From a virus, in IMG/VR virus record IMGVR_UViG_3300035698_012408: 64,000 nt of DNA; one strand, 5' to 3'. Shown here in pieces: positions 7,094 to 52,878 of the stretch. The stretch's first letter is position 1, and every line of letters starts with the position of its first letter. A model generated the notes under the pieces. It saw only the letters and a list, made by a program, of their open reading frames with translations, was not told the origin of the DNA and ran no database searches. Made by a program: the position numbers and the translations under genes.

Positions 7094-8045
7094 TCTTACC
7101 TTCCCTCAATTCGACAACTCGGTGTTCTCGGGTCTTCGCCTCCACGATCGGAGGATTGTAATTCGTCAATGCCCATTGATTATAATGCCGCTTAATTGCC
7201 TGAAGCGGATCAATCCGAAACCTATGGTAATCCGGCACAGCGACAGCTACGAGCTGCGGCAACGGATACTTCCAATCCACGCGACACTGCGTGACCGGAT
7301 TCTCAACAGCCGCCCCGCAGAAGTGACAAGCACGAAGCCCAACACCGCCGCCACAATAGGCACAGTTTATAGCCAGTGTTGCCTGCGCCCCACCCAGCCA
7401 CTCTGCCATGCCTGCGAGATTACTAGACAACCCGATAATCGCTCGCTCCATCGTCTCAACAAATGGGTGATTAGTGTCTGGGCGTTCTGGGTCATAATCG
7501 TCAGATATTAGCTTCTGATCCAGGCCCGCCATGACAGAGCATATCTTACGAAAACCACCAACGGTAGTACGGTGATCCGGCTCCACGATTCGGAACTCCA
7601 CAGTCTGCCGCGAGCTGTCCCACGCCAGTCGACTGCCCCACTCCACTTCCGCGTAATTTGCAACACGTTCACGATAATCAAATAACGGCTCCCGGTCGGA
7701 ACCGACACGTATGTGCTCCCGCGCTGGGCCGTCATCACCGATCCCGGCTACATACGACTCTTTCCGCCGGTTGGCGTAATGATAGAACAACCTGCGAAGA
7801 TTGCCGGGGCCGCCGGATCGAAGCCGGAAAACATGCTCTGCACCCCGTACAGCGATAGGCGGCGAGATGAACGGAATACCACCCACGGTATCCTCCGCCG
7901 ACTGTTTCCATAATTCCTGCACCTCACTACCCGCAAGATGCGGACACAGACACGACAGATCAAGCGGTCCTCGAAGCGTCGAGGCACCTTTATCTATTGC
8001 GTCCCGCAATTTTGTTGCGTAAGTCTGAAAGTTAGGTGGCATCAT
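7083..8045 (-). CDS. hypothetical Cys-containing protein
   Basis: 320-aa ORF with CAYCGGGVGLRACHFCG, possibly Zn-binding. C-terminus REHRVVELREGKNEV carries the recurrent motif. Overlaps the SbcC-like start by 11 nt. Confidence 0.6.
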   Translation of the reverse strand: MMPPNFQTYATKLRDAIDKGASTLRGPLDLSCLCPHLAGSEVQELWKQSAEDTVGGIPFISPPIAVRGAEHVFRLRSGGPGNLRRLFYHYANRRKESYVAGIGDDGPAREHIRVGSDREPLFDYRERVANYAEVEWGSRLAWDSSRQTVEFRIVEPDHRTTVGGFRKICSVMAGLDQKLISDDYDPERPDTNHPFVETMERAIIGLSSNLAGMAEWLGGAQATLAINCAYCGGGVGLRACHFCGAAVENPVTQCRVDWKYPLPQLVAVAVPDYHRFRIDPLQAIKRHYNQWALTNYNPPIVEAKTREHRVVELREGKNEV

Positions 8046-8683
8046 TGCAGCCCCGTGGGGTTGTGATCGCTAAGATGTAACGTGATCCAATCGTACACTA
8101 CCTGTGTGACCTCAAACTCTACCCGCTGATCCACAGCAGACGGTCGCACGGTGAAGGCCTTCTTGCCGTTTGTCAGTTCTACCATCAACGCATTCGCTGC
8201 CAGTAGATCACTTAACATGAACGACACTGTCAGCTCTTCTGGTTCCTTTGCCGCGGATGCGGTAACTTCCCATTTACCGTACATCCCAAGCCATCCGTCA
8301 TCCAGCGTGCGGTCAAGCACCCGTTTGTAATCATCAGGTAACGCGTCCAATGGTCTCGAACGCGTGTTCGCCACTACGTACAACTGGTCAGCATTGTCGT
8401 TAATGCTGGCCGCCGCTACCTCCAGCGGAATATCCGCGTAAATACCGGCAAATGCCCCATTGGTCCACGTCGTGACAATCCGTGGCCCATCCCGGTACAT
8501 CAAAATCTGATCGTCGCACGTATGCGTGTCATACGACGCGAGGTTTCGTAACGTGAACAGCTGCGGATCAACGACTTGATGCGGACCCATCGCCCGCCCG
8601 TCGCCAGCCTGAAGGTAGACGACTTCGTTGACCCCTACCTTATCCCAACTAACCGGCCGAAACCCCGCTGGGATCTTCTCCAT
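8042..8683 (-). CDS. hypothetical protein
   Basis: The track ORF 8042..8809 is trimmed to internal ATG 8683 (MEKIPAGF...), because its upstream part overlaps the Mre11-like gene that ends at 8649. Confidence 0.5.
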   Translation of the reverse strand: MEKIPAGFRPVSWDKVGVNEVVYLQAGDGRAMGPHQVVDPQLFTLRNLASYDTHTCDDQILMYRDGPRIVTTWTNGAFAGIYADIPLEVAAASINDNADQLYVVANTRSRPLDALPDDYKRVLDRTLDDGWLGMYGKWEVTASAAKEPEELTVSFMLSDLLAANALMVELTNGKKAFTVRPSAVDQRVEFEVTQVVYDWITLHLSDHNPTGLQ

Positions 8684-9797: not shown

Positions 9798-9798
9798 T

Positions 9799-14244: not shown

Positions 14245-15201
14245 CTATATCGGCTGCTCGTTCGTCTGCTTGCGACGACGTAACGCCCCGAAGTCCGCCT
14301 GTAATCGCATACGGTAGGTGCGTCTCGCGTCCAACCACTGTAGCGTGCGATCAACGTCGCCACGCAGCAACAGAACTGGATACCGGCAAACACGCGCTAC
14401 CGCCCCAAATATTGCCGCCCGCGTGGGGCACTCATGCCGGGTCACCTTGCCGTGTATAATGTCTTCGGGTGTCGGGTAATCTGCCAGCACCTTGTATAAC
14501 CGACGATGACATACCCGCCAGCCCCGCGGCACTGGTTCTACAGTCGTCAACGAAAACGCGCCATGATGCTCCACCCTGCGAAATATTGCTGCTTTCCGCC
14601 GTGATACCAAATCCTTCATATAGACGCCGATCCACTTTGCTTCACTCCATTGAGGCGAGAATGTTTCTGGAACCGTCGAAACGTACGTCGTGTGCTTCTG
14701 CTCAATCAGATGAAACGGGAAAACAGTATCGTCTATCTCATCTAACTGAATTGCCCGCAAATTGCGACCATCGCAGTGCGCGACCACCGCATCCACCTGA
14801 GCCTGTAAACCTCTCCGTGTGTTATGAAATAGTGAATCCACACCCAGCCATACCTTACGCGCAGACCGGGCCCAGCAAAACGGACACAAGTCATTAAGTC
14901 GACAAGACCGTGTGAGTGGTTTGACCGCTACAAACGTAGGCATGCAATTTCTGCAATATCCGACAGCGTGCGGGTTCGCCGTGCCATGCGGTGTCCAACC
15001 TAACGCCGCCAACGCCCCCAACCGTGCCCGCCACACAGCCACGAGCTGTTGAGTCTTCTTCCGAATCGACGCCTGCGCTCTCACCTGCGTCGACCCCTTG
15101 GCGGGGCCCACCAACGGATAAAGCACCGTGGCCCGCTGAATCGCATCAACGAGTCGCATCGGTACAAATCCGTTAATGGAGAATCTCGTATCACTTATCA
15201 T
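14245..15201 (-). CDS. hypothetical protein with CxxC...CPFC motif (possible Zn-binding DNA-acting protein)
   Basis: 318 aa with CRNCMPTF...LCPFCWARSARKVW and an internal GRNLRAIQLDEIDD copy of the recurrent motif. Confidence 0.55.
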   Translation of the reverse strand: MISDTRFSINGFVPMRLVDAIQRATVLYPLVGPAKGSTQVRAQASIRKKTQQLVAVWRARLGALAALGWTPHGTANPHAVGYCRNCMPTFVAVKPLTRSCRLNDLCPFCWARSARKVWLGVDSLFHNTRRGLQAQVDAVVAHCDGRNLRAIQLDEIDDTVFPFHLIEQKHTTYVSTVPETFSPQWSEAKWIGVYMKDLVSRRKAAIFRRVEHHGAFSLTTVEPVPRGWRVCHRRLYKVLADYPTPEDIIHGKVTRHECPTRAAIFGAVARVCRYPVLLLRGDVDRTLQWLDARRTYRMRLQADFGALRRRKQTNEQPI

Positions 15202-15492: not shown

Positions 15493-15863
15493 TCGCCGCG
15501 AAGCGGCCCTCCTTTATGTTCAATTGCCACGCCAAACCACGCTACCAGCGTAGAGCGCATCTGCTCTATTGTCTCGTAATCAAAACGATGCGAACTGTAA
15601 CAAACACCGTCCCCGTGAAACCGAAGACGCATATAATACAAGCCACGATCGATGTCCTTGGTAATGTCCAGCATCTCAAAACGCCGTAACTTAGCCGTCG
15701 ACATACCGAGATCAAACAACGGCATGTAGATCACGTCAAGACAATCAAAGATATTCGGCGGCTTCCAGGGATGCGGTGATGGTTCTGCTATCTCCACCGC
15801 CGACATATCCTCCCGGTCCACGGCAATAACGCGTTCACGTTGCGAGTTGGTACCTAATGCCAT
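15489..15863 (-). CDS. hypothetical protein, paralog of 15863..16258
   Basis: The N-terminal SQRERVIAVD motif followed by PxPxxxW..IF mirrors the neighbouring gene. TAATG junction at 15863. Confidence 0.6.
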   Translation of the reverse strand: MALGTNSQRERVIAVDREDMSAVEIAEPSPHPWKPPNIFDCLDVIYMPLFDLGMSTAKLRRFEMLDITKDIDRGLYYMRLRFHGDGVCYSSHRFDYETIEQMRSTLVAWFGVAIEHKGGPLRGE

Positions 15864-16258
15864 TACACACTCCTTGCATAAAGACCCCCGCGGGCATCCA
15901 GGATTCCGTTAAGTAGTATCACGAGACCGGCTTTGATTTCCTCGGCTTCTTCACGTGTTTCCACGTCATGATCCGATGACCACGTCATGCAGCCTTCGCC
16001 ACTCCGCTCGTCCCAGCAACGAAGCTGGACATAGTACGTATTCGCGTGGACACAGTGCTGGAAAACCGAAAATGTATCGAACAGTTTAAGCCGTTCGATC
16101 GAAAACCCGTGAGCGAACCCGGGCAGCTCAAAAATATGCGTATTCGCCCAATTTCTTGTTGGTGGTTCAGGATTATCCTCAACCGCTGGGGCGTCCACGT
16201 CAATCACCCGCTCCCGTTTATCGGTCTGCCGGGTCGTTTCCCGTTTCTTCTTTGCCAT
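15863..16258 (-). CDS. hypothetical protein, paralog of 15489..15863
   Basis: N-terminal basic tract followed by DKRERVIDVD. Domain order is similar to the downstream gene. Confidence 0.6.
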   Translation of the reverse strand: MAKKKRETTRQTDKRERVIDVDAPAVEDNPEPPTRNWANTHIFELPGFAHGFSIERLKLFDTFSVFQHCVHANTYYVQLRCWDERSGEGCMTWSSDHDVETREEAEEIKAGLVILLNGILDARGGLYARSV

Positions 16259-16712: not shown

Positions 16713-17215
16713 GCCTCCTGTTTATCAAGGTTAATCGACCGTAAGGGCCCCCGCTCGACTTCGGCACTTTCCATGTTGGTCAGTGCCTCCGTCAGTTCGT
16801 GTAACTCTTTCCGAAGCTCGTACTCGGACGGTGGGTCTTCCGCCAGGATGTCACGAAACGCTAGACGCTTCGCGTCATCGATATTGGCCCTGCCGAGTAT
16901 AACCCGGCAGGCAAGTATGCGCCAGTTCAACTGCTGACGCTGCGCGATGTCAACGTGTCGCTCCATCACTTCATACTCATCCTCCATGACCTCGATCTGT
17001 GTCAGGCCACCCTTAACAAGGTGCAGCCCTGCACTGTAATGAGCTGACTGCTGCAACACCTGCTCGCGTACGGCAGGTGGTGCAGACGTCGCCAGTCTCG
17101 CTGTCGCTTCCATCTCATAATCAAAGAGTTCAACAGCCTTTTTCAGGCCCGCTTTGATAATCGACGTGTGCTCCACTAGAGCTGAAGCTCTTGGATAGCC
17201 TTCAGCGTGTTCCAC
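16709..17215 (-). CDS. hypothetical protein
   Basis: The track start 17215 is GTG. An alternative GTG at 17176 abuts the upstream stop. C-terminus RGPLRSINLDKQEA carries the recurrent motif. Confidence 0.55.
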   Translation of the reverse strand: MEHAEGYPRASALVEHTSIIKAGLKKAVELFDYEMEATARLATSAPPAVREQVLQQSAHYSAGLHLVKGGLTQIEVMEDEYEVMERHVDIAQRQQLNWRILACRVILGRANIDDAKRLAFRDILAEDPPSEYELRKELHELTEALTNMESAEVERGPLRSINLDKQEA

Positions 17216-21132: not shown

Positions 21133-21363
21133 CTAGCCAGAAGCCTTGCCGCCGCACGCCATCAGGAACTCATAAAGTCGCTTCCGCCCACGAATTGGGT
21201 CTGAAAGTAGATCTGCCGAATCTTCGTAAAATATCTGCTTGCCGTCTTGGCTCTCCACGGACAGCCAATCGCCAGCAGGCAAAGCATCAGGATCATCCCC
21301 GTCACTCCACCCACTAACAATGACGTTACCGTTTTCCAGCCGCAGCTCAAAAGGGGATGTCAT
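21133..21363 (-). CDS. hypothetical small protein
   Basis: 76 aa with SD AGGAG upstream of ATG 21363. Confidence 0.5.
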   Translation of the reverse strand: MTSPFELRLENGNVIVSGWSDGDDPDALPAGDWLSVESQDGKQIFYEDSADLLSDPIRGRKRLYEFLMACGGKASG

Positions 21364-21886
21364 TTTCTCCTATTCCTTCCTCGGGTACGTCAACCTGCAC
21401 GCTCCGTTTCTGCCGCGTCTCAAAGGACACTTCAGGGTTTTGCCGCCGCTCCCACATGTCAGTAACCCTGACAAACTCCGCGCGCATGCCGTCAAGTATG
21501 TCACGAGCCGGCTCCAAATCCAGCCCTTGGTAATTAGTACCGGGAATTGTTGACAGAATATCCATATCCGCGGCAGACTCGATCGCGTGCTCCAGCGTTT
21601 CGATCTTCGTACGCAGCACCGCGAGCGTCACCCACGGAAGCCCGAGAGCTGGCCCAGATACCAACTGTACCGAGGCGAGATCGTGCTCGAAGACGATGGC
21701 ATCCCAGGATTCTTCCCCGAATAGCTTACACGCCTCCCAATCCTCGATCTCGCAAAGCTCCATACAGTTGGCCACAAGAGCCTCGAACGGCGAAATAGCC
21801 TCGTATAGCCGACCTGTCAACGAATCAACGCCGCGCTCGATATACTGCGAGGCTATCGCGAATTTGCGTAATTGCTTGGTAGTCAT
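21347..21886 (-). CDS. hypothetical acidic protein with SSB-like C-terminal tip (...GENDIPF)
   Basis: ATG 21886 forms an ATGA overlap with the upstream stop. Carries KRSVQVD (recurrent motif) followed by PEEGIGENDIPF at the extreme C-terminus. Confidence 0.55.
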   Translation of the reverse strand: MTTKQLRKFAIASQYIERGVDSLTGRLYEAISPFEALVANCMELCEIEDWEACKLFGEESWDAIVFEHDLASVQLVSGPALGLPWVTLAVLRTKIETLEHAIESAADMDILSTIPGTNYQGLDLEPARDILDGMRAEFVRVTDMWERRQNPEVSFETRQKRSVQVDVPEEGIGENDIPF

Positions 21887-23071: not shown

Positions 23072-23712
23072 TGAACATACTCCATATCCCACTCATCGTG
23101 GTCCTGCAACTGATCCTTGAACTTCCAGTAAGCGTACCGTCTCGCCAACTCTCGCTTGACGTACTCAGGTAGTCGGACCTGTGCAACACGCATGTCACGG
23201 ACCCGTAGATCCCAGATATGATCGGTCGGACGCCGCATCTTCAGAAAATCGACATCCTTTATGAAAGCATTGTCCGGCGGCACCACGTGCGGGCACTCCG
23301 GTACTTCGACGTCGTTATCCGACGCCTGTAGATAAGCAGCGGTGGCCCAAGCCTCAGCCGCGTACTGATGGGTGGCACACCACCCCGTGATCGTTTCCAG
23401 CGGGATGTGCGGTATATCCACAAGCAGCAGCAGATCAGACAGCGTCTCGGGGTCTACCGAATCTTCAGTGTCACACAGCCCACCAGCATTGAGTACAATC
23501 TGCCGAAGCTGCTCCTCCGCGAAAGCCGCGGAAGCCATAAGTTCCTGGGCGCAGGTGAGCAGAAAACTGTCCTCCTCCTGCCCGCCGCCGTTGGACGCGA
23601 TTTCATCCAACGCGCTAGCCACGTAAACCTGCTGAGCATCTCCGCTACCCAGCATCGAATCCAGCAGGTTGTACGTCGGCTGGCTCAGATTACTCGCGTT
23701 TGGTCGTTGCAT
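23068..23712 (-). CDS. hypothetical protein
   Basis: ATG at 23712; the track start 23718 is GTG. Confidence 0.55.
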   Translation of the reverse strand: MQRPNASNLSQPTYNLLDSMLGSGDAQQVYVASALDEIASNGGGQEEDSFLLTCAQELMASAAFAEEQLRQIVLNAGGLCDTEDSVDPETLSDLLLLVDIPHIPLETITGWCATHQYAAEAWATAAYLQASDNDVEVPECPHVVPPDNAFIKDVDFLKMRRPTDHIWDLRVRDMRVAQVRLPEYVKRELARRYAYWKFKDQLQDHDEWDMEYVQ

Positions 23713-23774
23713 CCGCACCGCCTCCGTCTAAATCGACAGTTCGCAAATTGCGACCGTCTGGTTTCCGTTTATAG

Positions 23775-24497
23775 TCAATGGCCATCCGGGATTTCGCCCT
23801 TTTCGATCGCGACGACCTTCAGACCGTAAGACTTGAGCGTCTCCATCAACAGCTCTGCATAAGCGAGAGCCGCCTCGTCCTGCGTCACCTCGTCGCGGAG
23901 GAACTGGGCGAACAGAATACGGGTCCGTTCGCGGACGTTGGTGATCGTGCTCGCGTCTTCGCCCATGACGCCGTCCGTCAGCGGTGTTGTCACCAGCTGC
24001 TTGACCGGTAACTTGTTCTCCCCCGCTGGTTCACTGGCGGAGATCCAGATCGGCACACCGTCATACGGGCTGACGGGGCCGTCGATCGCGGGATCATTGG
24101 AGAGCGTCTCCAGATAAGCCGTATCGAACCCGACGAGCGGGCCGCCGGCCAACCGGCGAATCTCGACGAGCTCCTCACCGCCGCCCGCCGCAATCGTGGC
24201 GGTGCCGACATAGGAGGTACTGGTAACACACGCGTTGGGCGTACGTGGCTCAGCCGCCGGCGACGTGCCATAGCACCCCACCTTGCGAACACTGGCCTCC
24301 CGTGGGATGCGGAAAAGGTCAAAAGACCCCTGACACGGTTCGTCATCGATCCGCTCCGCCACACGGTTACGACAAACCCGCAGCTCACCGCTCACAACAG
24401 CGACACCGTTGAGAAACACGAACACGTCGTGTATCAGCAGATCACCAAACTGGCAGTCATGATGCTGCCCCGCGGGGAAAATAATTTTCTGCATCAT
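23775..24497 (-). CDS. hypothetical protein
   Basis: 240 aa with an ATGA overlap at 24494..24497. Confidence 0.55.
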   Translation of the reverse strand: MMQKIIFPAGQHHDCQFGDLLIHDVFVFLNGVAVVSGELRVCRNRVAERIDDEPCQGSFDLFRIPREASVRKVGCYGTSPAAEPRTPNACVTSTSYVGTATIAAGGGEELVEIRRLAGGPLVGFDTAYLETLSNDPAIDGPVSPYDGVPIWISASEPAGENKLPVKQLVTTPLTDGVMGEDASTITNVRERTRILFAQFLRDEVTQDEAALAYAELLMETLKSYGLKVVAIEKGEIPDGH

Positions 24498-25639
24498 TCG
24501 TCTTCATCTCCATAATTGAGATCAATAGCGCGTAGATTCCGGCCACCATGCTGCGGCGGCGGAACAGGAGGACGCTCAATGGTATCACCCCAAAGGGCTA
24601 AACCGTGAGCGCCGAGTCGCCGCCGAAAGCCGGCAAGCGTGACCGGGCCAATATCTGGACAACCCAAGAAATCCGAAGCCGTGAACAGCAAGACGTCACG
24701 AACAGAACGAGGCGACTGAGTTTTTCCAAGACCAAGCCGCCGCATGGCATCAGCCACGCGGGCCGGTATCTTGTCACCGTAAAGGTTCGTCCACGGCTGA
24801 CTCAAGATCGTTGCATCCTCGATACCGAGGCGGTCTTCGGGATCTTCCCCGAGGAACTCAAGCTGCGCGACCTCCAGGTCACTATGGGTCACCCGCTGGT
24901 GGAAGGCCACGGCCACATCATGCACCGCGTCAATTACCGTCTCGTGTGAGGCACCGGGTTGCAACAACAGCCTGTCGTAACCACCCGAGGCGATTACCTC
25001 CGTCACCAGCGCCCGGTAGGTTTGCGAATTGTCAATATACTGATCCCGCCACGCGATGGCGTCCAGCATCGCCTGCACCCACGACGCCTTATCCGTGACA
25101 TAGCGGACGGTCCAACCGTGGTCATTCAACCGTTGGTGGTTATAAGCAAATGCCCGCCGCTTCAGCACACCCTCGGCGACAATTCGCACGTTAAGCCAAC
25201 CGCGTCGCGTGTCGCGAGTTTGATAGATATTGGCATGCGACTGCGCAAGCGAGGCATCCGTAACATCCGCACCGTCCGGGACCGCCGGGAGATCCGTCAC
25301 GAGCAACCCAAAGCGGGAAGCAACCGCCAACCGCGACTCTTGCCGCCCGGTCGCACGACCTTCCGTAAGACCCTGAAGCAGCCCAGCATCGAAGCCCGCG
25401 GCGTGCCCCTTATCATGACCCTTCTCGACGATCTCCTCGATCGACTGCTCCGCCTGCCACTTCATCTGTCTGACCTCTTCACCAGCCACCTCGACCAGAG
25501 AATAAGCCTGGCGCGCTGCGTCATCTATCGCTCGCGTCCGCAGCTGTTTGGACTTCTTCCAACCGCTCCGATAACCGGCCAAATAACCGATCGGATGGAT
25601 GACCGCCTCGTGGAGCCATCTCACAAATCTTCCAAGCAT
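24494..25639 (-). CDS. hypothetical protein; C-terminal region looks helix-hairpin-helix-like
   Basis: ATG 25639 has SD AGGAGG 5 nt upstream. RVADAMRRLGLGKTQSPRSVRDVLLFTASDFLGCPDIGPVTLAGFRRRL resembles RpoA alpha-CTD/HhH segments (from memory, weak). C-terminus is GRNLRAIDLNYGDEDE. Confidence 0.55.
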   Translation of the reverse strand: MLGRFVRWLHEAVIHPIGYLAGYRSGWKKSKQLRTRAIDDAARQAYSLVEVAGEEVRQMKWQAEQSIEEIVEKGHDKGHAAGFDAGLLQGLTEGRATGRQESRLAVASRFGLLVTDLPAVPDGADVTDASLAQSHANIYQTRDTRRGWLNVRIVAEGVLKRRAFAYNHQRLNDHGWTVRYVTDKASWVQAMLDAIAWRDQYIDNSQTYRALVTEVIASGGYDRLLLQPGASHETVIDAVHDVAVAFHQRVTHSDLEVAQLEFLGEDPEDRLGIEDATILSQPWTNLYGDKIPARVADAMRRLGLGKTQSPRSVRDVLLFTASDFLGCPDIGPVTLAGFRRRLGAHGLALWGDTIERPPVPPPQHGGRNLRAIDLNYGDEDE

Positions 25640-33218: not shown

Positions 33219-34437
33219 GCTGTTTCTCACTTTCATCATGCGGCTTGTCCACCTCGATAACACGCTGCCGCTCCACCGGGAGGCCGGCGGCTTTTGCAAC
33301 GAGTTGCATCGTGGCGTCCATCTTAGCCGCCTTGCCATTGGTTCCGTGAATATCGTCTCGCGTATCGATCATATCCTGGAGGAACTTCGGTGTCGGCATG
33401 GCGTCATTCTTGCCAGCTTCCTGCACGCGTATGGCTGCATCCAGCAGCTCACGACATGGAAGCATAGGCCGCGACGGAATCATACTGACCGAGGTGCCAT
33501 ACCAGTTAATGCCATGCTCCCGAAGGAGCACGTGGGCCCGCTCCTCATAGAAGCATACCTGACCATTATTGGCCCGGTACGCCTTGACGAAGTCGCGTTG
33601 CCACGGCTCCATGTGCTGCCTTTGCAGCCACTGCTTAGCTCGCCGGAAATCAGCCACCATAGACCAGCGACGTAGGAAACTGTCGATAAACTCGGCGGTC
33701 ATCCAGCCTGTTTCCCACTTATGTTTGCCGCCCGGCTTGGGGGCAGGCCGTGGTTGGTACGCATCCTCAACTCTGCGTGTGAACAAGCCTCGTAGGATGT
33801 CATGAAATGACATATCATTAGCTCGGCCGACGTCGTACGCGTTGAGCCCATTGCTCACGCCCTCGCTGATGTCCGCGAAATGCTCGAACGCGTGGTCTTG
33901 CAGGTTGTAATCCACGTGAGGGTCGGTAGCGAGGTAATCCGCGGCTTCGAGCCCTACGTCCGACATACCGTTCTCACGACGCCTGCGTCTTTCAGCACCC
34001 AGCCGGTCGCAGAAATCATCTGCGAGCCCTTCCAGGTACTCTTCGTCTGTCAGGTACTGACGATCGTCCATCGCATCACCAGCCGTAACGATCCTATCGC
34101 CATGCCAGCTGCCGGCAAACGTCGGCACGATGGTACGACACATAATCATCTCGTCGTCTTCGGTACGCTCATGCCGATGGTTGTAGGGGCCAGCCCACTC
34201 TGCATGTATCATTTCCCACGGTTCCGGGTCGAACTTGGTTTGCTTATCCGACTCGTACACAGTGCGGCAGAGGTCTCCCATGCCTTCGCCGTTGCCGCAA
34301 GCAGTCAGGACGGCGAGGGCGGTCATAATGCCGTCGCTTGAACATCCGAATTCCAGCAACTTACTGCCGTCCCCAAACGGGTGCGGCGAGATAAATTCCT
34401 TCTTGTCGAGGTTCACGATCACGTAATACTGGCCCAT
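33208..34437 (-). CDS. hypothetical protein
   Basis: 409 aa. C-terminus is ERQRVIEVDKPHDESEKQHAV (recurrent motif). Confidence 0.65.
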   Translation of the reverse strand: MGQYYVIVNLDKKEFISPHPFGDGSKLLEFGCSSDGIMTALAVLTACGNGEGMGDLCRTVYESDKQTKFDPEPWEMIHAEWAGPYNHRHERTEDDEMIMCRTIVPTFAGSWHGDRIVTAGDAMDDRQYLTDEEYLEGLADDFCDRLGAERRRRRENGMSDVGLEAADYLATDPHVDYNLQDHAFEHFADISEGVSNGLNAYDVGRANDMSFHDILRGLFTRRVEDAYQPRPAPKPGGKHKWETGWMTAEFIDSFLRRWSMVADFRRAKQWLQRQHMEPWQRDFVKAYRANNGQVCFYEERAHVLLREHGINWYGTSVSMIPSRPMLPCRELLDAAIRVQEAGKNDAMPTPKFLQDMIDTRDDIHGTNGKAAKMDATMQLVAKAAGLPVERQRVIEVDKPHDESEKQHAV

Positions 34438-35270
34438 TATTCAGTCCAGTTCTGCATTTCTTTTTTGAGATTTCTGTAAACGTAACGTGCCGTCACGTCT
34501 TCGCGTGCTGGTGTGTTAATCACCGAGTATCCGACAGCTTCCAGCGACCAGACCACTTCACTCGCAACCTCGTGACGCGCCTCATTCTGCGCGTACACGT
34601 AGTCGTCAATGCCGCCGCAGGAGCTTTCATATTCGTTATCATGCTTAATGACGAATTCACAATGCACCCGCCACCACTCCCAGCCGTTGAGATACCACTG
34701 GGTCAGCTGCGCAACGTAGCGGCGTTCCCAGAGTGCTGTCATCTCAGCAGCTACTTGCTTGCTGGCGCCGTTATATCGCATGTGCTGGAAGAATCCAGCT
34801 TTATTATCCTGCGCATGATCGCAGTCCTTGATATGCACACGAAACGTCTCGCCGTCAGAGTGGGCGTAGCCCTGACACTCCTGAAACTGATCAGACGTCG
34901 TGCGACTGTAACCGACGTTACATTTATGGCACCACTCTGTGAACATTTCGCGACTGTGGTCCCAGCCGTCATTCTCCACCCACGGAGCGGTCATCCCCTC
35001 ATCTTGCGACACGAGCGTGGCTTCAAACACGTCGTCGTATTCAATAAAACACGGCATGGAGACCTTACTAGCCTCCTCGACCGTTACTAGACCGTGCGTA
35101 CCTGTGTTAGTACACGAAGTTTTCGTCTCAATATGCAGGGTGCTGTCTTCACGCCACCGCGATTCGGTGGTGTGAAAACCGCCGCCCTCCCGTTCCGTTA
35201 CTGTCCGAAACTCCTCTTCCGGGGCATCCGGGGTGAGGGGATCTAAGACGATGGAACGCAGTTGCCGCAT
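34437..35270 (-). CDS. hypothetical protein
   Basis: 277 aa with 1-nt junctions on both sides. Confidence 0.6.
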   Translation of the reverse strand: MRQLRSIVLDPLTPDAPEEEFRTVTEREGGGFHTTESRWREDSTLHIETKTSCTNTGTHGLVTVEEASKVSMPCFIEYDDVFEATLVSQDEGMTAPWVENDGWDHSREMFTEWCHKCNVGYSRTTSDQFQECQGYAHSDGETFRVHIKDCDHAQDNKAGFFQHMRYNGASKQVAAEMTALWERRYVAQLTQWYLNGWEWWRVHCEFVIKHDNEYESSCGGIDDYVYAQNEARHEVASEVVWSLEAVGYSVINTPAREDVTARYVYRNLKKEMQNWTE

Positions 35271-39858: not shown

Positions 39859-40118
39859 AAGTCTGTAGGCCGTACCGTTTCACATTCTTCGTCGTCCTCG
39901 TCGTCATTCATGGGAATGATGGCCATGTGCAGCCACATGCCATTGTGTAGTTCTGAAGCGTTCGCGACGTTTTGCCATCGCTCCGGGACACCAAAATCGA
40001 TGCTACGGAGTTCAACGGTATACTCGTCGGGACCTTCGTCGACGTCGATCGAGATGATCGCATCGTCGGGCAATTCAGCGATTGCTTTTCTGATTTCTCG
40101 AATGGTTATGTTTGGCAT
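39855..40118 (-). CDS. small acidic protein
   Basis: 87 aa ending NDDEDDEECETVRPTDF. Convergent with terL, with a 4-nt overlap. Confidence 0.5.
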   Translation of the reverse strand: MPNITIREIRKAIAELPDDAIISIDVDEGPDEYTVELRSIDFGVPERWQNVANASELHNGMWLHMAIIPMNDDEDDEECETVRPTDF

Positions 40119-44943: not shown

Positions 44944-45582
44944 TTACTCCTCATGAGGGTCATCCAGATCGATGACACGTTCCCTGTTGTTCCCGCTGGC
45001 TACGGTGCCACGAGAATCGCTAATCGTTTCAGTAGGCATCGCCGGGGGCATATTATCCGCCGGCTGAACCGCAGGGTCTTCTGACCCCGAGGGAGCATAC
45101 TCATACTCCACGAGCACCTGCATGATCCAGTCACACAGCAAATCAATATTATCGATCAGCTTGTTTTCGAGATCAGGCCCGTCACGGTGCTGCACACGAC
45201 ATCGCCATTTCGCGTCCGCAAGATCCGTAATAGTTCTCGGTGTCTGTCTGGTCGCGAGTGTGATGATCAATGTGTAATCGTTATCCAACGCCTGAGCAAC
45301 CTGCGGCGGCTCTTCCATCCGCTCAATGAAGTTGCGAAAGGAACTACCGGGAATCACACGAGCCCCGTCTGTTACCGCAAAGCCGCTAGCGTGCAATTCA
45401 TCGAATATGTCGAACACCGGATCAAAGAAATGGATGATCCCGTCCCGTAGTGTTACTGCATCCGTCGCTGCACTTGTGGGTGCGTGAGCACGCTCGCGGG
45501 CAGCCTCCAGCGACGCCTGGACCTTGCTCCGCCGCGGTGGCGGCCCCGGTCGGCGCGGGTATCGATGTGCTCGTCTTGTCAT
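44944..45582 (-). CDS. hypothetical protein
   Basis: 212 aa. C-terminus is NNRERVIDLDDPHEE (recurrent motif). Confidence 0.6.
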   Translation of the reverse strand: MTRRAHRYPRRPGPPPRRSKVQASLEAARERAHAPTSAATDAVTLRDGIIHFFDPVFDIFDELHASGFAVTDGARVIPGSSFRNFIERMEEPPQVAQALDNDYTLIITLATRQTPRTITDLADAKWRCRVQHRDGPDLENKLIDNIDLLCDWIMQVLVEYEYAPSGSEDPAVQPADNMPPAMPTETISDSRGTVASGNNRERVIDLDDPHEE

Positions 45583-46331: not shown

Positions 46332-47492
46332 TTAACCTAGATCGATGTCACGGAGAGCTTTCCCGTGTTCGGCCTCTAATCGTTCGAGTTCGGACGGATC
46401 GAGAACCTCACGAAGGAAACCCTCTAATTGTGAGGTCTGGTATTCTGCTCCTGGGTTTTTCCACGGCGGCGTTTGCTGAATCGCGTCAGATGACTTCGAT
46501 AAAGCATATTGCCGCAGGTAGCTGTAGACATCCTGCGGGAACGTCAATTCCCGCCTGATCGCTTCTTGGAGCAGTGCGCGAAACGCTGGCTGTGCCCGGA
46601 GCCATGACTTAGCTTCCAGTGCCAGCGATCCATTCCCGCGTGTTGGGGAGTATTGTGTAAATAACTGCGTACACTCTCGCACCAGATAGATAATTGTCTG
46701 CCATAGGTGCTGATCTTCCATGTCGGAGATCTGATAGGTCCACACGCCACCGGAATCGTCCGGGGCTGGTATGGTCCATTTTTCGGTATCGTACCAATTG
46801 ACTATAGGAGGCTGCGGCGCATCAGGGGTCGGGACGGCGGCCGCTTGTTCTTGCTCCTGCTCCTGCCGTCGTTGAAAGCCCTCCCGCTGCCTACGACCCA
46901 CGCGTTGGGGGTCAAACGTCGTGCGTATTACAGCACGAGCTTGCGTTGACATGTCGCCAGAGTCCTCGGGTAGATCACTCGCATTCGTACGTCGGCCGAA
47001 CAGTGCATCAAAATTCTGTCGTTCGTCCTCCTCCGCTTCGGCTGCCGTGACGACGCGACCACTTCGTAAGTGCATGCGGCCATCTGGTAATCCGGTAAGC
47101 GGAATATCAACACAGGATTGAGGCACTGAGACAGTATTGCCCTTTGCCGCGTTCGCCCACATTGTTGAGAGCTCCAGTAACGCATGCCCCGGCTGGTTCT
47201 CCACGCCAAACTGTTCGATGAAATGTGAGAGTCTATCTGCGATCGCCTCTGTTGCGCGCTGCTGACGACGGCGTCGTGGCAGGTAGACCAACAGTACGAC
47301 ATACGACATCTCCGCAGGGAGCATCGTCCAGCTGGCGATCCTTATTAGATCTGATTCCGTCAAGGTCGTCCGCATGCCCGGAGTCATCCCGGACCACTCT
47401 ATGCTGCCACCAGCCGTGACGATGTCATCACGTAGGTCCATGACACTATGTGCCATTTCGTCGGTCCGAAATAATAAGGCTGCGTCGTTCAT
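46332..47492 (-). CDS. hypothetical protein
   Basis: 386 aa. C-terminus is HGKALRDIDLG (recurrent motif). Confidence 0.6.
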   Translation of the reverse strand: MNDAALLFRTDEMAHSVMDLRDDIVTAGGSIEWSGMTPGMRTTLTESDLIRIASWTMLPAEMSYVVLLVYLPRRRRQQRATEAIADRLSHFIEQFGVENQPGHALLELSTMWANAAKGNTVSVPQSCVDIPLTGLPDGRMHLRSGRVVTAAEAEEDERQNFDALFGRRTNASDLPEDSGDMSTQARAVIRTTFDPQRVGRRQREGFQRRQEQEQEQAAAVPTPDAPQPPIVNWYDTEKWTIPAPDDSGGVWTYQISDMEDQHLWQTIIYLVRECTQLFTQYSPTRGNGSLALEAKSWLRAQPAFRALLQEAIRRELTFPQDVYSYLRQYALSKSSDAIQQTPPWKNPGAEYQTSQLEGFLREVLDPSELERLEAEHGKALRDIDLG

Positions 47493-47505: not shown

Positions 47506-47949
47506 CTAGTCTAACATGATCCCTCGAAGCGGACGTCCGTCGAAGCGAGGGATCTTTTCCTCTGCTTCCTGGATATTCTGCACCATAATGGGCTCGCGGT
47601 CAACAGGTGTGGCATTACATACCGAGATCCCCATCATGGCGTCGGTGTGCTTGCACCGCCGTAGCTTGCCGGCCTTCGCGAACGCCCAACCCGGGCAGTT
47701 GCAGGAGACCCGCTTCTCTTGGGTGGCCGGATCGGTCCACTCCACAGTGGTGTAAGTCGAGAGCCCGTTGGTGGACTCCCAATGCTGCACCCGGGCCGGA
47801 ACCTGCGGGGCGCCATTGACGAGCATGTTCCCTTTCGAGAAGGCCACGCCGTCCTGGTGTTGGACAGAGGCGAAGTCGGGATCAACGCGATTAGCCGCGT
47901 CAGCCCGTTCCCGTGTCTGTGTCCTGGTTGTCTGTTGGGTAGTGCTCAT
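47506..47949 (-). CDS. SWIM zinc-finger protein
   Basis: CNCPGWAFAKAGKLRRCKH fits the CxCx(n)CxH pattern. ATG 47949 forms an ATGA overlap with the small upstream ORF. C-terminus is GRPLRGIMLD. Confidence 0.6.
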   Translation of the reverse strand: MSTTQQTTRTQTRERADAANRVDPDFASVQHQDGVAFSKGNMLVNGAPQVPARVQHWESTNGLSTYTTVEWTDPATQEKRVSCNCPGWAFAKAGKLRRCKHTDAMMGISVCNATPVDREPIMVQNIQEAEEKIPRFDGRPLRGIMLD

Positions 47950-48101
47950 TGGAGCCCTTCCGCGTCGCAGTCGACGCATACGGCACTGCCATCGTGCTGC
48001 ACACGTGCGATCTCCACATTGGATCGCCCGCAGTAATCACACAGGTCAGGCCACTTTGTCGGGTCTTTCGGTTTGGCGTCAGTATTTTGATCTTCTGCCA
48101 T
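47946..48101 (-). CDS. 51-aa zinc-ribbon protein (below the ORF-track length cutoff)
   Basis: Manual translation gives MAEDQNTDAKPKDPTKWPDLCDYCGRSNVEIARVQHDGSAVCVDCDAEGLQ. GGAG lies 7 nt upstream. Its stop overlaps the next start (ATGA). Confidence 0.45.
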   Translation of the reverse strand: MAEDQNTDAKPKDPTKWPDLCDYCGRSNVEIARVQHDGSAVCVDCDAEGLQ

Positions 48102-48206: not shown

Positions 48207-49379
48207 TTACCCGGCGCGACCAAAATCGAGGTCGATCGCACGGAACTCTTTGCCGAATGCTTCCAGGTCTTCTTGCTGCCCTTCGGCCGCAGTCACCTCT
48301 TGCATGAAACCATCGATAGCCGCCGTGAAGCCCGAGTTCGCAGCCGTAACTGCGTCGAGACTCTTGGGGGTCGTAATGTTGAGCCTGCGTTCGAGGTCCT
48401 CCATCTGGTGGAGCAGGTCCTCGTTCGTGCAAAACTCAAACATCCGAATCTTTTCGATGGCCCGGCGGATTGGTGTGAATGATTTCTCAGACACGCGTCC
48501 GTTACGGTTGATCAGATCGCGAAGATTGGAGAGGGCTTCCGCAAGCTGGTCGCGAGGACCCCGGATCATCTCTTCGACCGCAGACTCGACTTGGCGGGAG
48601 CACGCATCTCTTACGATTTCGTGGTGCTCAGCCAGATCGGAAGCGGACAGTTCGCTGTTGCCGGTGTTACCAGCCAGTTCGATCGGAACGACATCCAGGA
48701 AGAACTTGCCACGCATGGCAGAAGCACTTCTCGGGATCTTCGACTCAACCTGCTCGAACACGTCGCTCTCGCGGCGAATCTGGTTCAGGATGTCATCGAA
48801 ATCCGCCACGAACTCGTCGGCCATTTCAGCCAGTTCGTAGGCGATGCTCTGCTGGTCCCGGCTAGGGTCACGCACAGGCGTTGACGACGGAAGGTCATAC
48901 CCAAGCCGCGTTCGCACGTCGTGAATACGTGTCTCGATCTGCTCCGCCATGAGGATGCTGTCCGCGTCACGGTATCGCTGGGCCTTGTGGGTCAGCGTAC
49001 CGATCGTGTCGCCAAACAGCTCATACATGAGCGCCGCACCTTTGTTCTTCGGCACAACACGCACCCCAGTGATGGGAAACTTGACCGAGAACATGTCCTT
49101 GACTCGCTCCAGCCGGCTATCAAGCCGTTGGAATCGTTTCTTCCACGACGTGCCAAGACGGTCGACCGGGTACCGGTCATTGATCAGCTTCGCACGGGGC
49201 GTCGTAACGTCGTTCTTCGCGACAGAGATATTGTCAACGGTGACATCCGTCGTCTGCCGCGGCAGTTGGTATTGCCCCTTCCACCAGCCGATGGAGGGAG
49301 CGAGGAGAATCACATGCTCCTCAAGCGCGTCTTGACGCGTGGTTACGGGCTGACTCTCAGTCATAGGAATGGTACTCAT
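48207..49379 (-). CDS. hypothetical protein
   Basis: 390 aa. C-terminus is GKEFRAIDLDFGRAG (recurrent motif). Confidence 0.65.
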   Translation of the reverse strand: MSTIPMTESQPVTTRQDALEEHVILLAPSIGWWKGQYQLPRQTTDVTVDNISVAKNDVTTPRAKLINDRYPVDRLGTSWKKRFQRLDSRLERVKDMFSVKFPITGVRVVPKNKGAALMYELFGDTIGTLTHKAQRYRDADSILMAEQIETRIHDVRTRLGYDLPSSTPVRDPSRDQQSIAYELAEMADEFVADFDDILNQIRRESDVFEQVESKIPRSASAMRGKFFLDVVPIELAGNTGNSELSASDLAEHHEIVRDACSRQVESAVEEMIRGPRDQLAEALSNLRDLINRNGRVSEKSFTPIRRAIEKIRMFEFCTNEDLLHQMEDLERRLNITTPKSLDAVTAANSGFTAAIDGFMQEVTAAEGQQEDLEAFGKEFRAIDLDFGRAG

Positions 49380-50430: not shown

Positions 50431-50640
50431 CTACTCGCCTTCCCGTAGAAACTCTTGACGTTCTTCGGTGCGGTAATAGTCTGAGGTGAGTTCTTCGTTT
50501 TCCACCGAACCAATGGCGGCCTCGAAAGCGGCACTGGCCGTCTGGCATTCACTGCCCGTGAACCCCTCGGTCGTGATCGTGGGTGTGCGAGTGCCTTTAC
50601 TGATCCCCTTCAGCGGGACCATCATGCGAATTACTTTCAC
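50431..50640 (-). CDS. small protein, DUF2997-like (from memory)
   Basis: GTG start with GGAG 9 nt upstream. TITTEGFTGSECQTASAAFEAAIGSVENEELTSDYY fits my recollection of the G-x-G-x-x-C...lG...T.EYY pattern. Confidence 0.4.
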   Translation of the reverse strand: MKVIRMMVPLKGISKGTRTPTITTEGFTGSECQTASAAFEAAIGSVENEELTSDYYRTEERQEFLREGE

Positions 50641-50735: not shown

Positions 50736-51104
50736 CTACGTTGATGCGAGTTGGGTCATGATGACCTCAACGTCGCCACCTTCTTGGTCGACCGTCTCGA
50801 CGGTGTAACCTTGTTCGGCCGCTTCGATCTTCGCAGTTTCGATCGTGTAGCTTTGGACCAGCTTGTCCAATTCGATCTGCTTGCCCCACGACCCGCCGTA
50901 GTTGTCGTAGTGGGCGACGCCCTTTTCGTCGATGACGACGGGATACTGCCAATCGGGCAGCTTGAAGCCGACACCTTGGACGTGCTGGCCGCCATACATC
51001 TTGTGGTTGCCCACGCCAAGACTGGTGAGGCCCAGTTCGCCGATCGCGGTGTTGAGAGCGTCGGTGTTGGTCAGATTGACCTTGCATTTTACAACATGAC
51101 TCAT
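50736..51104 (-). CDS. DUF1257 (Ycf35)-like protein (from memory)
   Basis: MSHVVKCKVNLTNTDALNTAIGELGL...YDNYGGSWGKQIELDKLVQSY fits the MSH...L..AL.eLG...WG...L pattern I recall. Confidence 0.45.
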   Translation of the reverse strand: MSHVVKCKVNLTNTDALNTAIGELGLTSLGVGNHKMYGGQHVQGVGFKLPDWQYPVVIDEKGVAHYDNYGGSWGKQIELDKLVQSYTIETAKIEAAEQGYTVETVDQEGGDVEVIMTQLAST

Positions 51105-51219
51105 TGAGATCTCTCCTGTAAAAGGGAAATTGGTCGGGCCGTCGCCCGAGACACGTGTCAGATACTAAGTGTAAACGATGCTGCCCGGGATACGCAACCC
51201 CGGACAGCCAAGAAGAAGC

Positions 51220-52878
51220 CTAATTGTCGATCTCGACCGAACGCTGAGCGCGTCCATGCTGCTTACCACTACTGATAGTCAGCGGCGTCGTTACGGGCCT
51301 CGCTTTGTCCTTACAGAACTTACGGATGGCCTCAACACCTTCGCTATCCCGCTGGCTGATGGGTACGATGCTGGCAGCCGCTTCGATAATCTCCTCGAAC
51401 GTGGGATCGCCCGTGTGGCGTTTCTCAAACGCGATGTACCGGGCTTCCCGGACAGCTTCCTCGATCTCAGAACCGACGAAACCGTGGAGTTTCTCCGTGA
51501 TCATCGTCCAGTCGTCGGTGTCCAGCCCCATACTCAGCATATCCACGCCACGCTTCTTGAAGTGGATCTCCATGATCTGCTGGCATTCGACCGAGTTCGG
51601 AAGGTCGGTGTACCACATGGCGTCGAAACGGCCGGCCCGCGTCAGTTCAGGCGGCAGGCCTTCGGTGCGGTTCAGCGTCATGATGCAGAACGTCTTCGAC
51701 TGGTTTTCAGCCAGCCACGTCAGGATCGTGCCGAACACACGCTTGGTCACACCCGAGTCACCTTGACTGGTGTGGGCGTGCCCCAGGGCCTTGTCCGCTT
51801 CATCGATCAGCAGCACGCAGCCTTTTTGGGCGTCGATCTGCTTCAAGACGTCGTGAGTCCGCTGCTCCGACTCTCCGACAAGACTGCCGAACAGCGAGCC
51901 GATGTCGAGGATGTAGCCGGGCAAGCCCAGCAGCTGGCAAGTCGCCTTGCCCACCATCGATTTTCCGGTACCGGGAAGTCCCAGCAGCACGACACCACGA
52001 GGGTAGTCGATGTTCATCGCGCGGGCGGACGGGAGGTACGCCTGCTTACGTCGTTCAAGCCACGTCAGGTACTGGTCGAATCCGCCGATCTCCTCACGAG
52101 AGGCGATGGCACCTTCGGGAATGTAGGTCAGCACCTCACTCTTCTTCACGATGGCCGCCTTCTCGTCTTTGATCGTCGACAGCATCTCCGGGGAGAACCC
52201 ACTGTGACGGACAAGGCAGCGTGCCAGACAGTTCTCCGCCTCGTTGGCGGTCAACCCGAGAAGGTTCGTGACCAGCTGTGCTCGCAGTTCGTCAGTGCAT
52301 TGCGCCTTCTCCGGGTCTTTCGACTCGATACTTTGGCGAACGAACTCGACGGTGCGGGCCAGCTTGGCCTCGCCTGGAAGCAAGAATTCCACGACAGAGA
52401 TGTTAGCTTTCACCTTGTCGTGGATCGAGAGCTTCGGCGACAGGATGATGATGGGCCGCTTGTGCTTCTTATTCACCAAGCGGTTGCCTTCCGTCAACGT
52501 GCGGATGCGCCGGCGGACATTAGTGTCCACCATGAAGTCATCCAAGTCACGGAAGATGAAGACCTGATTGCCGTTGAACAAGGCCTCATCGTTGAGAGCC
52601 TCCAACGCCGACACCGCGTTCTTGTACTTGTTGTTCCCCGACAGCGCGTCGCAGGAGAACCCCTCGTAACAGTCCCACGTGACCACGCCCATATTCAGGC
52701 GACGGGCCACACGCGTGATCTCGACCTCGGCTCGCGCCTCTTCGGCCGTATGCACGTAAAGAGCTTGATAACCAGCACGCAGATGTTCGTCCAACAGCTG
52801 GGCGAAATCGTTATCCTCGGTGACGAGGCCGGTATTGGTATCTTCCGCGGGGGCTGGTTTCGTCGTTTTCTTAGCCAT
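51220..52878 (-). CDS. classical AAA+ ATPase (Ycf46/FtsH-Cdc48-type module in C-terminal half)
   Basis: Walker A GLPGTGKSM, Walker B VLLIDEADKAL, sensor-1/SRH IMTLNRTEGLPPELTRAGRFD. C-terminus is GRAQRSVEIDN. Confidence 0.85.
   Translation of the reverse strand: MAKKTTKPAPAEDTNTGLVTEDNDFAQLLDEHLRAGYQALYVHTAEEARAEVEITRVARRLNMGVVTWDCYEGFSCDALSGNNKYKNAVSALEALNDEALFNGNQVFIFRDLDDFMVDTNVRRRIRTLTEGNRLVNKKHKRPIIILSPKLSIHDKVKANISVVEFLLPGEAKLARTVEFVRQSIESKDPEKAQCTDELRAQLVTNLLGLTANEAENCLARCLVRHSGFSPEMLSTIKDEKAAIVKKSEVLTYIPEGAIASREEIGGFDQYLTWLERRKQAYLPSARAMNIDYPRGVVLLGLPGTGKSMVGKATCQLLGLPGYILDIGSLFGSLVGESEQRTHDVLKQIDAQKGCVLLIDEADKALGHAHTSQGDSGVTKRVFGTILTWLAENQSKTFCIMTLNRTEGLPPELTRAGRFDAMWYTDLPNSVECQQIMEIHFKKRGVDMLSMGLDTDDWTMITEKLHGFVGSEIEEAVREARYIAFEKRHTGDPTFEEIIEAAASIVPISQRDSEGVEAIRKFCKDKARPVTTPLTISSGKQHGRAQRSVEIDN

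Follow-up and report, generated by a model that had tools for sequence, protein, structure and literature searches.

A short terminal peptide is shared by unrelated proteins and an AAA+ ATPase

We analyzed a 64,000-nucleotide stretch of virus DNA (IMG/VR record IMGVR_UViG_3300035698_012408; the whole stretch is called the window here), in which a short peptide recurs on many encoded proteins, mostly at the extreme C-terminus, less often at the N-terminus. This peptide has the consensus G-[RK]-x-[LF]-R-x-[IV]-[DENQ]-[LIV]-[DG], with a core of Arg-x-hydrophobic-x-hydrophobic, and we refer to it as the tag. One carrier is an AAA+ ATPase whose family has a tail of this same Arg-x-hydrophobic-x-hydrophobic form, so the tag spread across the window proteome is, judged by sequence, the ATPase's own family-wide tail. 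The role that we favor, and to which we give an even chance, is that of a short linear docking motif joining client or adaptor proteins, together with the ATPase, to one receptor in a module of AAA, DUF1257, and DUF2997 proteins.

The 13 copies cited in a first-pass annotation all translate as claimed from the minus strand and lie where it had placed them (Table 1). The strict regular expression R.[IV][DENQ][LIV][DN] matches 11 times in the three minus-strand frames, compared with 3 times in the plus-strand frames. Of the minus-strand matches, 8 are no more than 13 residues from a stop codon. This expression was composed after data inspection, and therefore scoring matrices were built from sequences outside the window. 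A 10-residue matrix, derived from 32 public-database orthologues of one carrier only, detected eight other window proteins at 10 bits or more, against 0.48 in shuffles (n = 300; largest, 4), and six at 12 bits or more, against 0.16. In five of the eight, no more than 6 residues separate the tag from the C-end (binomial P = 1.3e-6). A 6-residue matrix, built from related loci outside the window only, gave 17 matches where 3.9 were expected. Nine were C-terminal (0.31 expected; 500 shuffles, largest 3) and four were N-terminal (0.38 expected). Terminal enrichment is therefore far above the shuffled expectation.

The annotation had also counted at least 13 otherwise unrelated carriers. That number is approximately right, with about 13 to 15 independent families, but two copies fell under the score threshold (EHRVVELR at 7104..7121 and RRSGSLIDIS at the N-terminus of an SF2 helicase), one is borderline (MREHREINLW, 9.7 bits), and two are on paralogues. 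The paralogues are genes 15863-16258 and 15489-15863 (30% identity, E = 4e-9), and therefore their N-terminal copies have a single origin. An all-against-all BLASTP search of the carriers found this one clear related pair; the others share the motif only, as had been claimed. A weak 48-residue match between 15863-16258 and 46332-47492 (E = 7e-4) lies outside the C-terminal motif, and 14245-15201 and 24494-25645 have no similarity outside the motif. On the BLASTP evidence, derivation of the copies from one duplicated domain was rejected. Further copies that the annotation did not list are an N-terminal MRQLRSIVLD, one on a 31-residue mini-open reading frame (mini-ORF) that consists of little else, and a possible internal ELRSIDFG. 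For almost all carriers, searches of Pfam, PHROGs, PADLOC, and PDB sequences gave no match or a generic one.

Selection acts on the peptide

In 51 instances from the window and its relatives, codon positions 1 and 2 of the motif are fixed by amino acid class. The third positions are near-random, with 1.6 to 1.97 bits of entropy, so it is the peptide that is under selection. The back-translated DNA pattern matches solely in frame and on the coding strand, and the motif amino acids are retained across relatives with G+C contents of 0.47 to 0.61. These results uphold the earlier proposal of selection on a peptide instead of a DNA site, and, to the extent that sequence analysis can decide, they rule out a DNA-level repeat. 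A nucleotide-level element at gene boundaries (a promoter, a translational-coupling site, or a repeat) that is translated by chance would suit the position of the copies at gene ends and has a precedent in Mycobacterium phage Corndog, where a DNA palindrome can yield recurring terminal peptides, but the substitutions are conservative in the protein (I/V/L and D/E/N/Q) and the spacing to the stop codon is variable, and with the codon, frame, strand, and G+C evidence this leaves the idea a negligible chance.

The Corndog peptides are on the right arm of that genome (L030), where V-R-[KF]-P-N-[ST]-P recurs at the N-terminus of gp96, the C-termini of gp117 and gp108, and the N-termini of gp121 and gp119. 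We take these VRKPNSP-type peptides to be a translated GTTCGG..CCGAAC palindrome. They look like a DNA repeat imitating a peptide motif, and no counterpart of this kind was seen for the tag.

The tag is conserved in orthologues and predicted to be disordered

At least eight carrier families retain the tail in orthologues of 28 to 65% identity, usually as the literal C-terminus (...RAIDLD). Conservation of the tail in orthologues, one of the checks that the annotation had called for, is therefore borne out. A partner protein (48207-49379) is encoded near the ATPase, and its tail is the same kind of peptide. The core is in the last 30 residues of 38 of its 40 homologues (37 to 65% identity), and 28 end exactly at the core, typically as ...EFGRxFRAIDLD. 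In a family of 409-amino-acid (409-aa) proteins (33208-34437), all 16 orthologues (28 to 50% identity) have R-x-R-V-I-x-L-D in the last 30 residues and 8 end exactly there; distant homologues with only the N-terminal domain in common are without the motif. Syntenic loci retain the tails of the ATPase and of the 157-, 386-, 212-, and 187-aa proteins. Orthologues of the 157-aa protein end in GKHLRGIMLD, GRELRGIMLD, or GRELRGIMLE, the 386-aa orthologue in L005 ends in GKNLRDIKID, a 212-aa orthologue has SRERVIMLDDD..., and the 187-aa orthologue in L036 ends in REHRVIQLD. N-terminal copies persist as well: the L036 orthologue of the 277-aa protein (34437-35270) starts with MQRRHLRSIVLD, and both paralogues described above keep the motif although they are only 30% identical.

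The 383-aa carrier 24494-25645 had a sole match among 5.8 billion proteins, which was itself. Therefore, young genes also acquire the tag. A tag on this orphan and on a 31-codon mini-ORF would be as expected of a portable address label. The mini-ORF (23690-23785) opens, in the +1 frame, with an ATG that overlaps the last part of gene 23775-24497, and toward its 3' side it spans the GGAGG ribosome-binding site and start region of gene 23068-23718. This putative ORF could encode a mini-protein made up of the tag only, be a remnant, or supply a tail through frameshifting; no obvious slippery site was seen there.

AlphaFold models were available for two carriers. The mean predicted local distance difference test (pLDDT) score of the partner is 81 but that of its last 13 residues (378-390) is 31, and the ATPase has a mean of 93 but only 52 to 68 over its last 20 residues. 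In both models, the tag is predicted to be a disordered tail. The partner model had no fold match in the PDB.

The ATPase is a Cdc48/p97-like double-ring protein with a family-wide tail

The ATPase (51220-52878, minus strand) matches Pfam AAA and AAA_lid_3 and PHROGs family phrog_8638, and its best PDB sequence matches are Cdc48, VCP/p97, and VAT. In Foldseek, 520 to 590 columns, covering the whole chain, align with the D1-D2 tandem of Drg1, Cdc48, p97, and NVL. With two tandem AAA-fold domains, it is a Cdc48/p97-like type II (double-ring) classical AAA protein. The D1-like domain is called degenerate on the absence of an AAA sequence match, and D2 is predicted to be active. There is no N-terminal double-psi-barrel cofactor-binding domain, and no room for one, because the D1-like fold starts at about residue 22 of the model. 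Across 75 aligned family members (30 to 54% identity), the folded part ends at ...RA[RK]PV[ST]; beyond it come a variable basic linker and, close to the terminus, R-x-[IVL]-x-[IVL], mostly with 1 to 3 extra residues after the motif. R546 is at least 90% conserved among them.

A stretch just upstream of the Walker A motif is also tag-like (residues 284-294, 52000-52030, minus strand), reading (S)ARAMNIDYPRG. Relatives have ARALNIDYPKG or GKAARAVNLDYPKG there, with tag matrix scores of up to 17 bits. This may be a chance likeness in a structural element, or the tags may mimic this part of the ATPase. Some family members have additional domains. P0043, P0116, P0164, and P0181 contain inteins (Hint/splicing domains with HNH or LAGLIDADG endonucleases) inside the AAA domain. 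In P0185, a fused, complete Lon AAA-plus-protease module replaces the tail, and P0180 has an N-terminal TerD domain and ends in ..GRAIEF, each being a single sequence. The two fusions are possible "Rosetta stone" clues to function, and the Lon fusion hints at proteolysis, but only in this single sequence.

An ATPase module recurs in other lineages, with tag variants resembling the ATPase tail

Two untagged window proteins, one DUF1257-like and one DUF2997, are candidate receptors (Table 1). Clear DUF1257 proteins adjoin the ATPase in L038 and L039, and DUF2997 adjoins it in L001, Agrobacterium phage JP1, L038, L039, and L040. The module of ATPase, partner, DUF1257, and DUF2997 recurs across the sampled lineages. 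DUF1257 and DUF2997 are also found in cyanobacteria, as Ycf35 and its neighbor (PMC4284462). When module proteins were compared with PADLOC defense models, the ATPase had only a generic AAA-level match to IetA and the other nine proteins had none. When profiles of the partner family were compared with JP1 gp049 and Corndog gp95, no fold-level homology emerged, but the comparison revealed the shared tail of gp95.

We compared tag variants by eye in three metagenomic loci and Corndog, with no ATPase-free genome as a control. The L037 ATPase ends in ..VRQLDLDE, and its neighbors end in ..NRELDLT (a DUF6744 protein), ..KRDLDLD, ..NKELDNLD, and ..ARELDLF (a WGR protein). The L039 ATPase ends in ..RRRLDV and its neighbors in ..KRRHLDLEGENP, ..HRRHLDI, and ..QRRGLNI. 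In L040, the corresponding ends are ..TRGLDVDTKN for the ATPase, ..VRSIDLD for the partner, and ..IRTIDLWD for a WGR protein. Judged from these sequences, the tags of unrelated neighbors in all three loci resemble a variant of the local ATPase tail. The Corndog pair would fit this as well, gp96 (the ATPase) ending in ..VRVLDL and the adjacent gp95 in ..EFRPSGRAIDFE..GYALDFEEVV (also given as ..DEFRPSGRAIDFE...GYALDFEEVV).

In JP1 (L031) and Rhodobacter phage RcTiptonus (L032), the ATPase, its neighbor, PolA, a Cas4-like exonuclease, and other proteins have basic hydrophobic ends, such as GRKVIITS.., KRIVLKNS.., RKFRVLP-stop, and RRPKVLP... The SSB and RecA-like proteins of these phages begin with similar basic stretches (MAIKPPVRKIALKI, MKKPIRKKPGIRG). 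These tails may be a diverged basic variant of the tag.

A proposed docking mechanism and its alternatives

In the docking mechanism that we favor, every carrier, the ATPase included, would insert its tag as an extended strand into one receptor site. The receptor would co-evolve with the tag and so would probably be phage encoded, within the module (the ATPase ring, the partner, DUF1257, or DUF2997). The tag would gather clients or adaptors with an unfoldase that has no N domain, so that the ATPase could remodel, unfold, or pass on tagged proteins. The terminal position would suit either a pocket shaped for chain ends or capture by a threading motor. Among the hubs that the annotation had suggested, the AAA+ ATPase is now favored, by its family-wide tail of the same kind and by the neighbors' tags that resemble the local ATPase tail in three lineages. 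The replisome is not, as the DnaB-like protein and PolA are without the tag at both ends and a partly read RecA-like protein is without it at the N-terminus.

Several points weigh against docking on this module. The link to the ATPase is correlative and is drawn from lineages that have this ATPase. The presence of the tag on the ATPase itself argues against a simple scheme in which the tag is a substrate signal read by the ATPase, and the monomer model leaves the ATPase's own tail undocked on the ATPase. One copy is internal and some tails have up to 13 trailing residues, so a free chain end is preferred but not required. The acidic form in Corndog is on gp95 and gp96 only, so the proteome-wide spread is not universal. 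The net charges of DUF1257 and DUF2997 in acidic-tag and basic-tag lineages gave no complementarity signal. Finally, the monomer model, the charge comparison, and the profile comparison picked out no receptor protein.

A broader proposal, which we put forward as tentative, is that phages with this Cdc48-like ATPase run their own protein-addressing system, in which a portable 6- to 10-residue terminal label drifts with its receptor and routes a changing set of phage proteins to an unfoldase or translocase. Equally tentatively, the labeled proteins might be removed at set times, activated, or carried into a compartment or capsid, which would make the system a viral analogue of ubiquitin-independent targeting or of the signals for organelle import. 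The 31-residue tag-only mini-protein could be a competitive regulator of such a system.

The tag might instead mark proteins that the Cdc48-like ATPase, or an unfoldase of the host, would unfold and deliver to a protease for timed turnover, with the ATPase's own tail docking it on the protease or giving self-limiting turnover. ClpX-type recognition signals are typically tags at either chain end of unrelated proteins, and the ATPase here is a double-ring, unfoldase-type AAA protein without a substrate-binding N domain. The Lon fusion of P0185 points the same way, but it could be a gene-calling artifact. Moreover, no protease was seen in the module, either in the window or in the related loci. 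The ATPase and the conserved partner bear the tag themselves, and tags are kept on conserved, presumably needed proteins, which docking fits at least equally well. We consider a degradation tag unlikely. ClpX signals and the SspB XB tail of Escherichia coli ClpXP do share with the tag a design of short, disordered N- or C-terminal peptides on unrelated proteins that one AAA+ unfoldase reads or that tether adaptors to it. They differ in sequence, and the ATPase here is of the Cdc48-like D1-D2 type without the ClpX zinc-binding N domain, has no ClpP-like partner that we could see, and is tagged itself. p97/Cdc48 belongs to the same double-ring AAA class, and its cofactors bear short linear motifs (VIM, VBM, and the SHP box) on unrelated proteins. 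The disordered C-terminal tail of p97 is itself a docking peptide, bound by PUB/PUL domains, and in this it is like the tail of the phage ATPase. The p97 cofactor motifs, however, are unrelated in sequence and bind the p97 N domain, which is absent here, and in the phage one motif is common to the ATPase tail and the other proteins.

A second alternative is a targeting signal that routes proteins to a compartment or capsid for packaging and ejection, with the ATPase as a translocation motor anchored to the same receptor by its own tag. The tag is terminal, portable, and present on many proteins without assigned function, including small ones, and the ATPase module has tail-fiber/glycosylation genes to one side and the terminase region to the other. 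Precedents are the capsid targeting sequence of phage T4 and the cargo-loading peptides of encapsulins, the latter binding HK97-fold shells, and they are like the tag in being portable terminal peptides that direct unrelated proteins to one viral or virus-derived structure. However, nothing ties the carriers here to a capsid: no capsid, portal, or scaffold gene was recognized among them or beside the module, and in JP1, RcTiptonus, and Corndog the module keeps company with genes of replication or early genes. In T4, the prohead protease removes the N-terminal signal after Glu ([LI]-x-Glu), whereas most copies of the tag are C-terminal and end in Asp. The core of encapsulin cargo-loading peptides is hydrophobic-x-hydrophobic-G-S-L, whereas that of the tag is R-x-[IV]-[DENQ]-[LIV]-D. 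We know of no precedent for AAA-driven import into capsids. A targeting signal is therefore doubtful.

The hub could also be unrelated to the ATPase (for example, the sliding clamp of host or phage, SSB, or some other platform for replication or repair), making the ATPase one more client. Motifs anchored at the termini of many proteins resemble clamp-binding and PIP motifs (PMC11139829), which like the tag are short linear, often terminal, disordered hub-binding motifs on many unrelated proteins. In addition, one carrier (21347-21928) has an SSB-like DIPF end, and the JP1 and RcTiptonus tails described above are on PolA, SSB, RecA-like, and Cas4-like proteins. But the clamp-binding consensus is Q-aliphatic-x-[L/M]-[F/L] or Q-aliphatic-x-[L/M]-x-[F/L] (PMC11139829), and the tag is without this defining Gln, its fixed residues being Arg, two aliphatics, and Asp. 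Clamp motifs are expected on the replicative polymerase and replisome proteins, which are untagged here, as described above. A universal host hub also explains neither the tag variant that tracks the ATPase tail in each sampled lineage nor the restriction to the ATPase and its neighbor in Corndog. An unrelated hub is therefore improbable. In particular, a clamp or replisome tag is unlikely, given the untagged PolA, DnaB-like protein, and RecA-like N-terminus (just left of the window) together with the mismatch to the clamp consensus.

An Asp-specific protease site was a further suggestion, as [IV]-[DE]-[LIV]-D resembles the P4-P1 residues of caspase/granzyme-B-type sites, and cleavage would trim short extensions or N-terminal propeptides. 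Gly often follows the Asp, and cutting at the N-terminal copies would free peptides of 10 to 22 residues. Against this, the conserved upstream Arg and Gly would be left unexplained, no protease was found in the window, and many partner and 409-aa-family homologues (28 of 40 and 8 of 16, respectively) end at the last residue of the motif, so that there is nothing to cleave off. The earlier proposal of a proteolytic processing site is contradicted by these orthologue ends, and we regard it as very improbable.

Two other peptide systems were compared. The HbYX motif of proteasomal ATPases and other 20S activators is likewise one C-terminal peptide on different proteins, including AAA ATPases, with a strong preference for the extreme C-terminus, and it binds a partner ring through a single set of pockets. 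Unlike HbYX, which is hydrophobic-Tyr-any in the last three residues, the tag has no penultimate Tyr; its tails end in ..IDLD, ..VEIDN, or ..IMLD, some with up to 13 further residues. N-terminal and internal copies occur, trailing residues are tolerated, and no proteasome-like partner was found. The EEVD-type peptide of the TPR carboxylate clamp is acidic-hydrophobic-Asp with a free carboxylate. For such a peptide speak the many orthologues that end in ..DLD-COOH and the two TPR-containing glycosyltransferases encoded in the window; against it speak the N-terminal and internal copies, the trailing residues, and the extra residues (1 to 3) of most ATPase tails, so that the comparison is divided.

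Locations of the copies and other window genes

Table 1. Tag copies, candidate receptors, and the terminase gene in the window. Residues between a C-terminal tag and the stop codon are in parentheses.
Feature	Coordinates	Strand	Gene	Remarks
Internal tag GRNLRAIQLD	14740..14769	minus	14245-15201	residues 145-154; 21.7 bits, 10-residue matrix
N-terminal tag SQRERVIAVD	15816..15845	minus	15489-15863	residues 7-16
N-terminal tag DKRERVIDVD	16193..16222	minus	15863-16258	residues 13-22; 6-residue matrix
C-terminal tag RGPLRSINLD(KQEA-stop)	16724..16753	minus	16709-17215	168-aa protein; 14.0 bits, 6-residue matrix
Weaker tag TRQKRSVQVD	21389..21418	minus	21347-21928	13 residues from stop; 11.2 bits, 6-residue matrix
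Mini-ORF MAIDYKRKPDGRNLRTVDLDGGGADATTKRE	23690..23785; tag 23726-23755	minus		31 codons
C-terminal tag GRNLRAIDLN(YGDEDE-stop)	24515..24544	minus	24494-25645	383-aa orphan; 10-residue matrix
C-terminal tag GRQPRVIDLD(GGG-stop)	27767..27796	minus	27755-28318	187-aa protein; 10-residue matrix
Tag VERQRVIEVD	33247..33276	minus	33208-34437	409-aa protein; 12 residues from stop
N-terminal tag MRQLRSIVLD	35241..35270	minus	34437-35270	residues 1-10; 12.7 bits, 10-residue matrix
Large terminase subunit	37927-39858	plus
Possible internal copy (E)LRSIDFG	39990..40007	minus	39855-40118	acidic 87-aa protein; 11.8 and 12.6 bits, 10- and 6-residue matrices
C-terminal tag NNRERVIDLD(DPHEE-stop)	44962..44991	minus	44944-45582	212-aa protein; 6-residue matrix
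C-terminal tag GKALRDIDLG-stop	46335..46364	minus	46332-47492	386-aa protein
C-terminal tag GRPLRGIMLD-stop	47509..47538	minus	47506-47979	157-aa protein
C-terminal tag GKEFRAIDLD(FGRAG-stop)	48225..48254	minus	48207-49379	partner protein; weak DUF3150 similarity
DUF2997 protein, untagged	50431..50640	minus		candidate receptor; Pfam E = 2e-11
DUF1257-like protein, untagged	50736..51104	minus		candidate receptor; Pfam E = 0.0013, below curated cut-off
C-terminal tag GRAQRSVEID(N-stop)	51226..51255	minus	51220-52878	AAA+ ATPase; both matrices
Possible N-terminal copy RSIKIS in MSANRSIKISW	58048..58065	minus	57031-58077	13.4 bits, 6-residue matrix

Orthologues of 57031-58077 start with MAANRGIKLSW or ..SRSIKVNW, and the RSIKIS copy may be part of a folded domain. 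The 193-aa protein encoded by 21347-21928 ends in ...GIGENDIPF, like the C-terminal tail of bacterial SSB (DDDIPF). With the weak tag 13 residues upstream of this end, it has two putative docking peptides in tandem. Searches with the body of this protein against Pfam, PHROGs, and PDB sequences were empty.

Nearly all window genes are on the minus strand, and the G+C content is about 0.56. Other recognizable genes encode a collagen-repeat fiber protein, a class II ribonucleotide reductase, a Rad50/SbcC-like ATPase, a metallophosphoesterase, DnaB-like and SF2 helicases, an HldE-like heptose kinase/adenylyltransferase, and three glycosyltransferases (one of family 9 and two of family 2 with TPR repeats). 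No close relative of the window was found among isolated phages and plasmids, and the terminase is only 29 to 32% identical to those of Vibrio phage D69 and Salmonella phage Arash. Proteins identical to those of the window are on a 215-kb metagenomic contig, and the relatives' contigs are 180 to 230 kb; on these grounds, we read the window as a portion of an uncultured jumbo phage of roughly 215 kb. Single-protein query scans and a scan of a genome collection returned nothing useful.

The bifunctional HldE-like gene is at 11357-12841 (minus strand). The 726-aa family 9 (heptosyltransferase-type) protein and the two family 2/TPR glycosyltransferases are encoded at 58444-63891 (minus strand), beside the collagen-repeat fiber gene. 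By sequence similarity, these genes suggest that virion proteins or the host envelope are glycosylated with heptose. The pairing of family 9 and collagen genes is seen again in L040. Within the conserved block of tagged genes, 44728-44940 (minus strand) encodes a 70-aa CsrA-like protein (MLVLSRKKNEVV...), whose L001 orthologue has a precomputed Pfam CsrA match. Three minus-strand genes (40131-40442, 39855-40118, and 26080-26349) encode small, extremely acidic proteins with long C-terminal Asp/Glu runs that are conserved in L001; they could be DNA mimics or partners for basic peptides. About 3 to 7 kb past the left end of the window (L033, 4854-8195), a family A DNA polymerase of 1113 residues has a uracil-DNA glycosylase-like domain on the same chain.

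Significance

Shared terminal docking peptides organize central cell machines such as the sliding clamp, SSB, ClpX, and the proteasome. The principle of such peptides around an AAA machine or hub is already known from ClpX tags, the SspB tail, p97 cofactor motifs, HbYX, and clamp-binding motifs. Apart from the T4 capsid signal, we know of none that serves as a proteome-wide label in phages. Full-text literature searches found no description of the motif or of the ATPase module in phages, and nothing relevant on DUF3150 or on phage DUF1257 and DUF2997. The motif, the ATPase family, and the identity of ATPase tail and proteome tag therefore appear to be undescribed, and there is a realistic chance that the tag marks a new phage protein-addressing system. 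The module is present in cultured, engineerable phages, namely, Mycobacterium phage Corndog (gp95/gp96), Agrobacterium phage JP1, and Rhodobacter phage RcTiptonus. A portable 6- to 10-residue tag with lineage-specific variants could, if the proposal is true, serve as a tool for protein recruitment or degradation. It would also give a handle on a large uncharacterized phage ATPase family (phrog_8638) and a first functional clue for more than 12 orphan jumbo-phage proteins.

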